From assembly GCF_963921235.1 (NCBI RefSeq), contig NC_086108.1:12648001-12712000 (forward strand): a stretch of 64,000 bases of DNA, read 5' to 3'. This stretch comes from Mobula hypostoma. Taxonomy: Eukaryota. Below the pieces are notes generated by a model. The model was not told the DNA's origin. It made no database searches and saw only the letters and a program-made list of their open reading frames with translations. A program made the translations under genes and the position numbers. Positions 25,815 through 31,599 of this stretch are shown piece after piece; position 1 is the first letter of the stretch; the number at the start of each line of letters is the position of its first letter.

Positions 25815-26875
25815 TGTGTATAAATAAAATGCATATACACATGCGTGTATATGTAAGAAAGAGACACTCACACACACATACACATATTTAATAAATAAAT
25901 GATATACATAAATAAATTAAAAAAGAGAGTGATATTGATGAATGACTAGAAAACAGTGTGGTGCCTACTCATGAGACATTAATGAATAATGAAGGTAAAT
26001 CAGGAACTAGCTGCAATTTCCACTGCCAGTCAGATAATGTTGCAAATACTGAGCAGGTCAGGCAGCATTTGTGGAGAAAGGAGCAGGTGTAATTTTCCAG
26101 ATATTGTTGTTTCATCAAAATAAGCATTTGATACGAGGTTTTTAATCCTGAATGGTTCAATTATTTTCTCTCTCCACTGAGTATTTCTAACATTTTCTGT
26201 TTTTATTTCAGATTTTCCATTTTTGTAGCTATTTGATATTTGATCAGCATAATCTTCCTCTTTGATCTTCTGGGTTTTTGACATCTTGTGGCATTCATGG
26301 CTCAGGTCTGGACTATTTGTTTTGTATGGCTACATCCTATTGATATTTTTACGTGCTTGCTATCTTGTACATGCTGTGTGTGGTTGTTGCTACTGTGTTT
26401 TGCACAGCGCAGGTGGCCGAGCAGCGCCGTGGAATCGAGGAAGGAGCGCGGGCAGCACGGGCACGCGAAGGGCGGTGGCCAGCCGTCGATGGCGCCGTGC
26501 TTGCGCAGCCGGTGGCGTGCCAGCGCAGCCCGTGTCAGGCAGCCGCGGCCGCAGTCATCGCACCGGGACCCCACCGGGTAGGAGAGAGGTCCGGCAGAGA
26601 GAAAGACCCTTTCCTCCTCCTCCTCCCCCTCCCCCTTTCTCTCCGCACACAGGTCTGCTACACTCGGCTCATCTCCCCACCCCCCCCCGTCTCTGTAACC
26701 CCTACACTCCCCATCCTCCTGTTCAAATCCCTCTCTCGCCTCCATCTCTGTAATCCCACACTCCCTGTCCTCCTGTTCAAACCCTCCCTCACCCCCTCCC
26801 TATCTCTGTAACCCCTACACTTGCCCCTCCTGTTCAAACCCCTCCTTATCTCTGTGTAGGGAGCTCTGAGGAGAG

Positions 26876-27027
26876 GGAGTACCTTTGGTGCTGATAGCTG
26901 CGCCTCACTAAGGTGGGGATGGTAGGCATCACTGGACCTCACTCATCTCCTAATTCTCTCACTTGTTGGCTCCTCGTGCCATACCCTGGAAACCGCTTCA
27001 GCTAGCGGGCGAAAACAAGTGAGGGGG
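26876..27027 (+). ncRNA. HDV-like self-cleaving ribozyme fold at the RTE 5' end
   Basis: P2 TTCTCTCACTTGTT(26954-67)/AACAAGTGAGGGGG(27014-27); P3 GGC/GCC around L3 TCCTCGT; P1 3' ATACCCT; GG for P1.1; P4 CCGCT/AGCGG; J4/2 CGAA (C27010); best P1 5' GGAGTAC (26876-82) with two mismatches. Confidence 0.8.
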
Positions 27028-27800
27028 TGGTGTCATTACTACACCACGAGGTGATCATCCCAACGGCGGAGCAGGCGGAAGAGGAGACATCTCCCAACGG
27101 CTGCAAAGGCGGATGAGGATGTCCAACAATGGGTAGGGAGGCTTGCGAGCACGCCGCAAGAACCGCCGTAGACCCACAACACTCAGGGCTTGTCTACCTA
27201 GCGTGTGAAGCCTGGATTCGGCGGACTGCGCGGAAGAAACCATCACTGGTTCAACGGGCAGAAAGGCGATTCTCAGCAATGCGTCATGGAGTGCTAAGAG
27301 GGCACAGTGAGACACACAGAACACTGCTGGCCATCCACTGCATCCTGACCTATCTCCAGCCGTCTCGACTATGTCTTGCCACTGGGTCCAGATAGGCCGG
27401 GACGAGACGGTGAGGCTGACGACCTGCGCAACTCTCCCTCACTTTAATCCAAGTCAAGCGCAAGTCATGACTTCAAACCCAAAGCGCAACCTAAAGTCCT
27501 GTGGCGATGGGGGAGTGGCGAAGCAGCAGGTACGGATACACTGGAAGCTGTAGTCACAAACCTGCACAGAGGCGGCCCAGGGCATAGGGTCGCTCTCTAC
27601 TGGACCGAAGCAGCAGTTGAGTTCGGCAGCCCCCTGGGTGTCTGAGCAGCCCTCTTCAGGGTCGCTCTGCTCACCTCCATGGAGGAAGGGGCTGGAAAAG
27701 GTGCCTCAAACATAGTCTGCTTCACTTCACCCTGGCCAGCTTACCGCGGCTGGTGGGGATCCCTCATAGCGGTCGACCTACAACAGTGAAGAAGAAAGTG

Positions 27801-30800
27801 ATGGTGCTCAACCTTGGCACATGGAACGTGAGAACTCCGCGAGATAACATCAAGGCAGACAGACCAGAGAGAAGAACAGCACTGGTTGTAAAAGAGCTAG
27901 CTCGCTACAACGTGGACATAGCAGCTCTCAGTGAAACGCGCCTAGCAGACAAGGGCCAGCTGACAGAACGTAGTGGTGGATTCACGTTCTTCTGGAGTGG
28001 TCGCAGCAGCGCTGAACAACGAGAAGCAGGCGTGGGATTTGCCATCAATTCTAACCTCGCCCGTAAACTCACCAAGCACCCAGAGAGCATCAACGACCGC
28101 CTGATGACACTTCAGCTCCCACTTGCAAACAAGAAGAGCGCTACGCTGACTAGTGGCGACGCTCCCACCATGACCAACCCAGATGACATTAAAGACAAGT
28201 TCTATGAAGAACTCGACGCCCTCATCTCAGCAATCCCACAGTCAGAGAAGCTCATCATTCTCGGGGACTTCAATGCCAGAGTAGGGACAGACTACCAAAC
28301 CTGGGAAGGGATCATTGGAAGACACGGCACTGGCAAGTGTAACAACAACGGCCTTCTGCTCCTCAAGACATGTGCCACACACGACCTTGTCATCACCAAC
28401 ACCCTGTTCCGCCTACCCACCCGTAAGAAGACATCATGGATGCACCCACGCTCGAAGCACTGGCATCTGATTGACTACATCATCACCAGGAAGAGGGACA
28501 GGATGGATGTCAGAGTGACGAGAGCCATGTGTGGTGCCGACTGCTGGACCGACCACCGCCTCATTGTGTCCAAGTTCAGGCTTCGCATTCTGCCCATGAG
28601 AAGACCCCAAGGGCAGAAGACTGCAAAGAGGCTGAATGTCTCCAAGTTGAAAAGCAGCAGGGTTGCAGAAGAATTCGTCGATGACCTTGAAGGCAGACTG
28701 CCAGACACACCACAGGAAGACGGGACCAGCGTTGAGGAACAGTGGACAGCCTTCAGAGACGCTGTCTACACTACCGCCCTTGAACATCTCGGACCAGCAG
28801 CCCAAAGAAACCAAGACTGATTCGATGAGAATGATGAAGAAATACAGGCACTACTAACGGAGAAACATCAACATTACAGAGCGCATCAGAATGACCCCAC
28901 GTCGCTAGCCGAGAAAGATGCCTTTACCAACGCAAGAAGAAAGGTGCAGAAAAAACTTCGCGAGATGCAGGACAGCTGGTTCAGCAAGAAGGCCGATGAA
29001 ATCCAGGGTTATGCAGACAGCCACGACATAAAGCGCTTCTACGATGCGCTTAAGGCTGTATACAGACCCCAGTCCTCTGGCTCTTCACCCCTCCTCAACG
29101 CAGATGAGATGCAGCTGCTGACAGAGAAGAAGCAGATTCTGGATCGGTGGGCTGAGCACTTTAACATCGTCCTTAACCGCCCTGCTGACGTCAACAACGA
29201 GGCCATTGCCCGCCTGCCCCAGGTAGAGATCAACAAGAACCTCAACACCCTCCCCACAGTAGATGAAGTCAGGAAGGCAGTGAAGCAACTCTCCTGTGGC
29301 AAAGCGCCAGGACCCGATGCAATCCCTGCTGAGGTATACAAAGCAGGAGGCCCTGTCATGATGCAAAAGCTGACTGTACTCTTCCAGTCCATGTGGAAAA
29401 AGGGACAGGTCCCGCAACAGCTGAAAGATGCCAGCATAGTCCACATCTACAAGAGGAAAGGCAACCGCCAGTCTCGGGACAACCACCGAGGCATCTCCCT
29501 CTTGTCCATTGCGGGGAAGATTCTGGCCCGTGTCCTGCTCAACCGCCTTCTCCAACATCTTGAGCAAGGTCTGCTCCCAGAAAGCCAGTGCGGCTTCCGT
29601 GCTGAACGTGAGACTGCGGACATGATTTTTGCTGCGCGCCAACTCCAGGAAAAATGCCAGGAGTAACACAGTGACCTCTTCGTGACCTTTGTCGATCTAA
29701 CCAAGGCTTTCGATACGGTCAGCAGAGAAGGCTTGTGGAAGATCATGGAGAAGTTTGGCTGCCCCAGCAAGTTCATCACAATCGTCCGGCAGTTCCACGA
29801 CGGTATGATGGTAAAAGTTCTGGATGATGGCGACGAGTCGGAGACCTTCCCAGTGACAAATGGTGTCAAACAAGGCTGCGTTCTTGCCCCGACTCTGTTC
29901 AGTATGGTATTCTCTGCCATGCTGACAGATGCCTTCCGTAACTACGAAGAAGGAATTCACGTCAGGTAGAGGACTGACGGCAGGTTGTTCAACCTTAGGC
30001 GCCTGCAGGCAGTTACAAAGGTGCCAGAAATTGTCATCAGAGATTTCTTGTTTGCTGATGACTGTGCACTCAACGCCAGCACAGAGGAGATGCAGCGTGA
30101 AATAGACTGCTTCTCACAAGCCTGCGACAACTTCGGTCTCACTATCAGCACCAAAAAGACCGAAGTTATGTACCAGCCTGCCCCAGGAAAGCCATACCAG
30201 GAGCCGCGCATCACAGTGAAGGGCCAGAACCCCCAGGCAGTCGACAACTTCACCTACCTGGGCAGCATACTCTCTCGCACAGTGAACATAGACGCTGAGG
30301 TCAACAACAGGATTGCCAAAGCCAGCGCCGCCTTTGGGAGACTCCGTGAGAACGTCTGGGAGCAGAGAGGACTCAGCCTTATCACCAGGCTGAAGGTCTA
30401 CTGTGCAGTGGTCCTTACCACCCTCCTTTATGCCAGCAAGACCTGGACTGTCTACAGCAGACACGCCAAACAGCTCAACCACTTTCACCTGAGCTGTCTC
30501 CGCAGACTCCTCCACATCAGGTGGCAGGACAAAGTCCCCGACACGGAAATCCTGGAACGAGCTGGGCTCTGCAGCGTCTACACCCTCCTGCTGAAAGCCC
30601 AAGCCAGGTGGGCTGGACATGTGGTCAGAATGCCAGACAGCCGATTGCCTAAGCAGCTGCTGTATGGAGAACTGTGTCAGGGCAAGCGCTCAGTTGGGGG
30701 GCAGAAGAAACGTTACAAAGTCTGCCTTAAAGCGTCCCTCAAAGGCCTGGGTGTCAACATCAACACGTGGGAGACGCTTGCCCTCGATCGTCCAGCTTGG

Positions 30801-31007
30801 CGCAGCAAGATCACCACAGGAGCCCGTGCAGCTGAAGTCAGGCGCATCATTGAGGCGCAACGAAAGCGTGCTGTGCGCAAGGCCCGAGCAGCATCCACTG
30901 CCACGACAGCACCCACCCACTTGTGTCCCACATGTGGGCGAGCCTTCAGGGCCCGGATTGGCCTCATCAGTCACCTCCAGACCCACAACCACCAATCTCC
31001 CATTTGA
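27801..31007 (+). pseudogene. RTE ORF (AP endonuclease + reverse transcriptase + C-terminal C2H2 zinc finger)
   Basis: LGTWNVRT..IAALSETR..GDFNAR..WTDHRLI; PGPD; VDLTKAFD; KQGCVLAPTLF; FADD; CPTCGRAF..H..TH. One frame throughout with three nonsense codons (28818, 29664, 29967). Confidence 0.95.
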
Positions 31008-31599
31008 CTTTGAAGCCATGGTAATCTTCGACTACGAAGGACGAACAACAACAACAACAACAACAACAACTGTGTTTTGCACCTTGACCCTGTAGTAATG
31101 CAATCTCATTTAGCTGTATTCATGGGTATTCATGTATAGTTGAATGTCAGCAAGCTGAAGGGCAGCGGGAATTTGGGGAACAACGAAGAGAATGAGTAGG
31201 GAGTATACAGTTCCTGCATGGGAGCCATTCGCAGGTCGAGGCAGTCTACTACTAAGGAATCTGTCTGAGCCCAATGCCTGCCCCTCTGCAGCACAGGATG
31301 GTTGCTTTCAGATGTCTATGAAGAGGGACCATTGGTGATTGACCCACTGGCTGCCTAGAGATCTTCTGAGTCCAGACAGAACAAGAGAGACAGGATTGAA
31401 AAGCACTCTTAAACAAGGGGTGCACTCTAAAATTGCTGTGACAATGTCAATGAGTAAATCAAGTCACCGTTTTAAAAGAAAAAAGCCAAGCCTTGATGTA
31501 AGGGGGACAGTATGGTCATCCTGATAATACACTTAATTTGGAAAATTTGTGTTAAAAACTCAGGAAGCATTTACTTTTAAGTTTTCCTCAAAGAATGAT

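Follow-up and report, generated by a model that had tools for sequence, protein, structure and literature searches.

In 2011, Ruminski et al. reportedly described HDV-like ribozymes that head the non-LTR retrotransposons RTE, Baggins, R4/Dong and L1Tc. The ribozymes of these elements are nested double pseudoknots that lie at the extreme 5' end of the element, cleave at its first nucleotide and are thought to free promoter-less elements from co-transcripts. This distribution is described in PMC6765202, PMC7761336 and PMC3774820, and the same sources report the processing of non-LTR 5' ends by such ribozymes for RTE, R2, Baggins and L1Tc, in agreement with what an earlier note on the DNA analysed here had taken as established.

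Several of these systems provide a direct basis for comparison. According to PMC3774820, R2 ribozymes possess a P1 helix of 6-7 bp and a J1/2 junction of 23 to >700 nt, and when P1 is altered, the cleavage site moves or cleavage is lost, with a corresponding effect on the 5' junction of the inserted element. R2 targets a specific site in 28S rDNA, and sequence from that target frequently makes up its P1 (PMC3774820). In Trypanosoma cruzi, the autonomous L1Tc and its non-autonomous partner NARTc carry the same 5' HDV-like module, and this module, Pr77, doubles as an internal promoter (PMC3383444). The RTE element Perere-3 of Schistosoma mansoni, which inserts non-specifically and generates target-site duplications, is described in PMC8501958 as carrying a 5' self-cleaving ribozyme of the twister-variant class.

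In a 64-kb stretch of DNA from the ray Mobula hypostoma (hereafter, the window), a module of approximately 200 nt (26851-27054) heads an RTE-type element, and the same module heads two deeply diverged RTE-type lineages, A, to which the window copy belongs, and B. We hold with good confidence that the module is a genuine HDV-like ribozyme that forms the RTE 5' end in both lineages and that the window copy is truncated in P1 and would remain uncleaved. The sequences document the fold, its conservation and covariation, the accumulation of 5' ends at one position and an uncleaved template, and from these we infer catalysis. The proposal of the earlier note, an HDV-like ribozyme at the head of an RTE-type element, gains support from helix conservation, four compensatory pairs, an invariant cytosine and 5' ends that cluster directly next to target-site duplications. 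As in the RTE, Baggins, R4/Dong and L1Tc ribozymes, the predicted fold is a nested double pseudoknot at the extreme 5' end with predicted cleavage at the first element nucleotide, and we propose the same role for it. The ray module resembles the R2 ribozyme in its P1 of 6-7 bp, long J1/2 and conserved P3, L3 and P1.1 (PMC3774820); unlike R2, the ray elements occupy varied sites with target-site duplications, and their P1 lies wholly within the element. The ray system also parallels L1Tc/NARTc in that autonomous and non-autonomous partners share one 5' module, although the clade and the host differ, and it differs from Perere-3 in ribozyme class, which is HDV-like in the ray elements. Compared with known RTE-type ribozymes, the ray module stands out by its cartilaginous-fish host, an unusually long P2 of 12-14 bp, a structured J1/2 of 96 nt and a G:C cleavage-site pair in the B master. 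Both this class of ribozyme and what it does for RTEs have been described before, and the predicted ray ribozyme adds an instance. A search of the full-text literature, with the original RTE host lists lying outside its scope, found nothing on HDV-like ribozymes in elasmobranch, other cartilaginous-fish or other vertebrate RTEs, and HDV-like ribozyme processing of RTE elements would extend to cartilaginous fish if our reading is correct.

The window and the 42 aligned copies present the elements of the nested double pseudoknot in the order P1-J1/2-P2-P3-L3-P3'-P1'-P1.1-P4-J4/2-P2'. The features of the module in the window are as follows.

26851..26857, plus strand: remnant of the P1 5' strand, UCUGUGU (alignment columns 7-13; 4/7 pairs)
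26858..26953, plus strand: J1/2, a closed multi-helix domain of 96 nt (MFE folds and alignment pairing)
26874..26880, plus strand: alternative P1 register AGGGAGU near G26876 (6/7 pairs with an internal A.A mismatch; not conserved)
26954..26967, plus strand: P2 5' strand, pairing with 27014-27 (compensatory change at alignment columns 122:179)
26968..26980, plus strand: P3, GGC 26968-70 and GCC 26978-80, around L3 UCCUCGU 26971-77 (P3 92% paired)
26981..26987, plus strand: P1 3' strand AUACCCU (compensatory change at alignment columns 12:141)
26988..26989, plus strand: GG of P1.1, able to pair with the CC of L3 (96% paired across the alignment)
26993..27008, plus strand: P4 hairpin CCGCU-UCAGCU-AGCGG, with CCGCU at 26993-97 and AGCGG at 27004-08 (92% paired)
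27010..27013, plus strand: J4/2 CGAA with the putative catalytic C27010, directly before the P2 3' strand (C kept in 42/42 copies)
27014..27027, plus strand: P2 3' strand, partner of 26954-67 (pairing scored across the alignment)
27027..27047, plus strand: conserved hairpin GUGGUGU...ACACCAC just 3' of the ribozyme, present in lineages A and B

Both direct reading of the sequence and a descriptor scan place P2, P3, L3, the P1 3' strand, P1.1, P4 and J4/2 where the earlier note had located them. P2 of the window copy reads as 14 pairs, 4 of which are U.G. The core descriptor, a crude one of our own making, requires a P2 of 6 bp or longer, a P3 of 3 bp, L3 as U.C..G., P1.1 and C-N-R-A; it matches the 64-kb window once, at the proposed ribozyme site, compared with 0.01 matches per dinucleotide shuffle (1 in 100 shuffles). 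Covariance models, another means of detection that the earlier note had put forward, gave no such support. Rfam returned no HDV-type match at gathering score over the whole window, and at E up to 10 both the interval 26400-27400 and the intact B copy L063 yielded only chance-level lncRNA or miRNA matches. We regard this silence as weak counter-evidence, because a miss is expected for a module that combines a 96-nt J1/2 with pseudoknots.

How is the module distributed in the ray genome? A genome search with 26850-27130 returned 333 candidates; among the 40 that were scored, 7 (including the window copy) possess the 5' part of the ribozyme, 1 starts at 26977 and 32 match from 26999. When 26860-26998 was used as the query, all 16 of the scored matches resolved into 7 A copies (96-100% identity) and 9 B copies (76-87%). 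The two lineages are homologous only across window positions 26854-27054, and their endonuclease domains share only approximately 28% identity. A search with a B copy gave at least 419 candidates, and all 40 that were scored begin at query positions 1-6 (GGGGTAT). The short form of B is a non-autonomous element of approximately 470 nt with a (GAA)n end and target-site duplications of 8-13 bp (loci L048-L076). It has the first ~392 nt in common with the autonomous B form, ribozyme included, and the autonomous form enters its endonuclease ORF after position 392. Homologues of B are APE and RT proteins of 1010-1050 aa on contigs of 3.1-3.9 kb. Elasmobranch and invertebrate genomes contain close protein relatives of A and B. 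For the short form, we considered a SINE head of the tRNA or pol III type and rejected it, given that Rfam and ARAGORN found no tRNA, 5S or 7SL head; the ARAGORN runs, on four loci, detected no tRNA-like head.

The predicted structure is conserved across both lineages. We aligned 42 copies (7 A and 35 B), with the duplicate loci L047, L059, L070 and L074 left out. Across this alignment, the 31 core pairs are paired in 86.8% of cells compared with 36-52% when the partners are slid, and inclusion of five J1/2 stretches raises the set to 54 pairs, with 90.6% of cells paired compared with 42-48% in the slid controls. The covariation that the earlier note had proposed to look for among genome copies is present at four pairs that are altered on both sides between A and B: columns 12:141 in P1 (A:U vs G:C), columns 122:179 in P2 (G:C vs U:A) and columns 25:102 and 26:101 in J1/2. 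This covariation is real but thin because all four double changes fall on a single branch, the split between A and B. The hairpin that trails the ribozyme at 27027-47 contributes no covariation, since its stem sequence is conserved in both lineages.

The long J1/2 appears to be a folded domain in its own right. MFE folds of one A copy and one B copy have 13 pairs in common, distributed over three helices, and 23 J1/2 pairs are 95-97% paired across the alignment. Only one half of the J1/2 hairpin suggested from the window alone is shared in this manner: UGGUGC/GCAUCA is supported in both lineages, whereas CCUCAC/GUGGGG is restricted to lineage A. The single-stranded elements that would build the active site are likewise retained. 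The putative catalytic cytosine of J4/2 is found in all 42 copies, and C-N-A-A occurs in 41 of them, as CGAA(A) or CUAA(A) in 40 and as CAAA(A) in L034; the exception, L036, reads CAUA(A). In L3, U1, C2, C3 and G6 are kept in both lineages (UCCUCGU in A vs UCCAAGC in B), and the G and U of L3 are described as conserved in HDV-like ribozymes (PMC3774820).

The 5' ends of intact copies locate the predicted cleavage site. The upstream flanks of B copies are all different, and homology starts at GGGGTAT, a motif that occurs exactly in 19 of the 35 aligned B copies and is preceded by T, A, C or G. Our survey of 5' ends covered 19 short-form B rows, 11 of which display a credible duplication; we disregarded a twelfth, which lies in an (AC)n tract and is unreliable. 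The element starts no more than 1 nt from the first G in 7 of these 11 copies, carries 4-7 extra nt in 3 and is ambiguous in 1. Lineage A provides equivalent boundaries. The A-short copy L080 starts with GGGTGT directly after its 12-bp duplication, and A-GGGTGT is also found at the boundary in L081 and in a contig of run X9, which begins with ...AAGG followed by GTGTAGGG, an intact A-type boundary. The intact P1 5' strand, at window-equivalent 26851-57, is therefore read as GGGGUAU in B or (A)GGGUGU in A; it starts directly after the target-site duplications and pairs as GGGGUAU/AUACCCC in B and as (A)GGGUGU/ACACCCU in A. Whereas the window copy has AUACCCU as its P1 3' strand, the remaining 6 A copies have ACACCCU. 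In intact copies, the observed 5' ends fall on exactly the nucleotide at which cleavage is predicted.

The base pair at the cleavage site deserves separate consideration. HDV and the CPEB3 ribozyme present a G.U wobble (G1.U37) at this site (PMC4836649). In B, the corresponding pair is G:C in 18 copies, G.U in 8 and A:U in 2; a C is present at this pair in 8 of the 9 autonomous B copies, and the U variants lie at a decaying CpG. In A, the position is occupied by a U opposite A or by an unpaired U. A Watson-Crick pair at the cleavage site of HDV is reported to slow cleavage without abolishing it.

We propose the following mechanism. Elements that lack their own start signal would be co-transcribed from upstream DNA. 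The ribozyme would fold within the transcript, and the cytosine of J4/2 (C27010 in the window) would cleave immediately before the first nucleotide of P1. Reverse transcription would then act on an RNA that starts at P1, and new copies would begin at this nucleotide, right after the target-site duplication.

The insertion in the window departs from this scheme at its 5' end. The earlier note had placed the P1 5' strand and the cleavage site at G26876, a position from which 5 of 7 pairs can form with AUACCCU. No copy begins there (0/7 in A, 0/35 in B), and the pile-up of 5' ends that had been anticipated at G26876 is found at window-equivalent 26851 instead. A scan of 547 upstream starts identified 13 other positions that also reach 5/7 pairs with AUACCCU. 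The best nearby register starts at A26874 (AGGGAGU), where lineage B has two mismatches. At the conserved P1 position itself, the window copy carries UCUGUGU, which is paired at 4 of 7 positions and falls short of a P1 of 6-7 bp. The GGG of the P1 start has been replaced by UCU at the junction with a 54-nt satellite. The layout of the insertion is as follows.

26392..26405, no strand assigned: 5' target-site duplication ACTGTGTTTTGCAC, 14 bp (same 14-mer at 31069-31082)
26406..26672, plus strand: GC-rich 5' extension of the A-long subfamily, with the RNA 5' end placed at approximately 26406 (start directly after the duplication)
26673..26850, plus strand: approximately 3 tandem 54-nt units, joined directly to the truncated ribozyme start (TRF period 54, 3.0 copies)
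27801..31007, plus strand: single ORF with APE, RT and C-terminal C2H2 (Pfam PF03372, PF14529, PF00078)
31044..31068, plus strand: (CAA)n tail
31069..31082, no strand assigned: 3' target-site duplication ACTGTGTTTTGCAC (matches 26392-26405)

Judged by its ORF domains, short leader and simple-repeat tail, the window element is an RTE-type non-LTR retrotransposon. PF03372 (Exo_endo_phos), PF14529 (Exo_endo_phos_2) and PF00078 (RVT_1) all lie in one frame, and the closest named relatives of the endonuclease are annotated as 'craniofacial development protein 2-like' (93% in Mobula hypostoma and 78% in Hypanus sabinus), as are the best named homologues of lineage B. We take this name to mark RTE/BovB-derived sequences. 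The description of the element as a full-length RTE stands insofar as it is complete from the 5' leader to the tail, but its ORF is interrupted by three in-frame stops, at 28818, 29664 and 29967. The insertion spans 26406-31068 and starts 445 nt upstream of the ribozyme. The RNA template of the window copy was thus not cleaved, because those 445 nt were retained.

The same conclusion is suggested by related copies. The junction between satellite and ribozyme is common to five A copies (the window copy, which is L031, and L032, L033, L035 and L037). The A-long copy L078 is flanked by a separate 12-bp duplication and contains an inversion of the twin-priming type with its inner end at 26407, and L079 has its own 9-bp duplication, starts at approximately 26645 and displays the same satellite/ribozyme junction. 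Separate duplications combined with a shared leader indicate that the A-long copies are independent retrotranspositions of uncleaved RNAs starting near 26406. In the window copy, satellite sequence has taken the place of the first 3-4 nt of P1, and the simplest explanation is a 5'-truncated ancestor located in a 54-nt array; with a canonical P1 unable to form, the RNA stayed uncleaved and carried the 445-nt upstream leader along. The window copy is a dead insertion that lacks the first 3-4 nt of P1 and probably no longer cleaves itself.

The repeat and the leader invite several further remarks. The 54-nt unit is abundant in contigs of other runs, and L077 produces twelve staggered unit-length repeat matches across 1987-2896, far more units than in the window. 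Site-specific insertion into the 54-nt satellite was examined as an explanation for the junction and discarded, given that the 3' flank is non-satellite and that 445 nt separate the duplication from the ribozyme downstream of it. The segment 2448-2708 of L078 is a 5' inversion of 26407-26566 in the classic twin-priming layout, and an opposite-strand joint of the L078 type is also found in a contig of run X19. Read by eye, the minus strand of 26406-26672 resembles a C2H2 zinc-finger fragment (...FACPCCPRSFLDSTALLGHLR). The GC-rich A-long leader may have been transduced from a host gene. The intervals 26344-26431 and 27356-27487 show very high contig depth in runs X1, X5, X9 and X19; the insertion target and part of the leader, represented by these intervals, are high-copy repeats.

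Could the window copy itself be active and cleave with a P1 that begins at G26876 or, better, at A26874? Downstream of the P1 5' strand, this copy retains every core element, AGGGAGU at 26874-80 forms 6 of 7 pairs with AUACCCU, weak use of this register would fit lineage A, and the known R2 ribozymes include some that have mismatched positions at the P1 top and some whose P1 is only 4 bp long (PMC3774820). The same paper, however, links P1 mismatches to the loss of in vitro cleavage. Moreover, the register at 26874/26876 is not conserved and has two mismatches in B, the stretch 26874-80 is partly sequestered because its first bases pair in a conserved J1/2 helix, and a start at 26874-76 is observed in 0/7 A and 0/35 B copies. 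At least three independent A-long insertions with their own duplications all contain sequence upstream of 26874. We therefore consider an active window copy very unlikely.

A broader alternative is that the module is a conserved structured leader without catalysis, such as an internal promoter or a translation-initiation or protein-binding element, and that the 5' end of the copies marks a transcription start. Copies that share one 5' end after the duplication are as compatible with a transcription start as with cleavage, the cleavage-site pair of the B master is G:C instead of G.U, the Rfam models are silent on the module, and the conservation of the structured J1/2 and of the trailing hairpin exceeds catalytic need. 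Such an account leaves unexplained why both lineages keep P3, the U, CC and G of L3, P1.1 and C-N-A-A directly before P2 at the correct spacing, and why the predicted cleavage site agrees with the observed 5' ends to the exact nucleotide. In addition, the copies that lack the P1 start are exactly those that carry upstream sequence, and the short form has no tRNA, 5S or 7SL head. We judge a purely non-catalytic leader unlikely, and leader roles would in any case be compatible with catalysis, because HDV-like ribozymes are reported to act in translation and protein binding too (PMC6765202). It is extremely improbable that a GC-rich retrotransposon leader resembles the HDV fold here by coincidence alone. 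A loose descriptor can often be threaded onto any one sequence, and the silence of Rfam would suit such a coincidence; nevertheless, only 0.01 chance matches are expected per shuffled window, P2 extends over 14 bp, and the fold is kept with compensatory changes across lineages whose endonucleases are approximately 28% identical. A self-cleaving module at the RTE 5' end, disabled in the window copy by the loss of its P1 start, is thus the reading that we prefer.

Within lineage A, the ribozyme has been lost from many copies. The 32 copies that match from 26999, among the 40 scored of 333 candidates, diverge upstream of that position, with everything 5' of the P4 loop replaced, and keep a vestigial 3' third of the ribozyme. 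We examined 22 such loci (L009-L030), which comprise 17 with tandem monomers, 3 with a coding-like stretch and 2 that are truncated. In the 17 loci, monomers of approximately 45 nt, a TATA-like 'tattatacaggtataagg' and a GC-rich stretch lie approximately 250 nt upstream. The coding-like stretch in L016 (1162-1521), L019 and L023 is the N-terminal exon of OTUD5, with 69% identity to the Mobula birostris protein over 99 residues and a match that ends exactly at ...DPAKVEQ. This exon is joined to CTAGCGG at 27002, right after cttcag in the P4 loop, where a cryptic 3' splice site (cttcag/C, 27001/27002) is found. Exon 1 of OTUD5 was apparently spliced onto the cryptic acceptor of an intronic copy and then retrotransposed. 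The most abundant A subfamily, A', retains just the last 39 nt of the OTUD5 exon.

These replacements bear on the history of the module itself. The ribozyme module is 76-79% identical between A and B compared with approximately 28% for the endonucleases, and no other A/B homology was detected between the elements; together with the OTUD5 head, this disparity suggests that 5' heads are exchanged as modules. We put at about even the chance that the module was swapped between RTE lineages and that A has left the ribozyme twice, once for a satellite leader and once through the OTUD5 splice that would have produced what is now the commonest subfamily. If this history is true, it would represent a traceable case in which a LINE swaps a ribozyme head for a captured, promoter-bearing head with monomers and a TATA-like box. 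A single genome also contains natural controls, namely, intact copies that start at P1, P1-truncated copies with upstream sequence and a subfamily that has discarded the ribozyme, and these could serve as a test set for the effects of 5'-end definition, ribozyme loss and promoter capture on the success of a LINE family. As a further observation on the leader, most A' copies are without a stretch of approximately 300 nt (27490-27790) that is present in the window copy.
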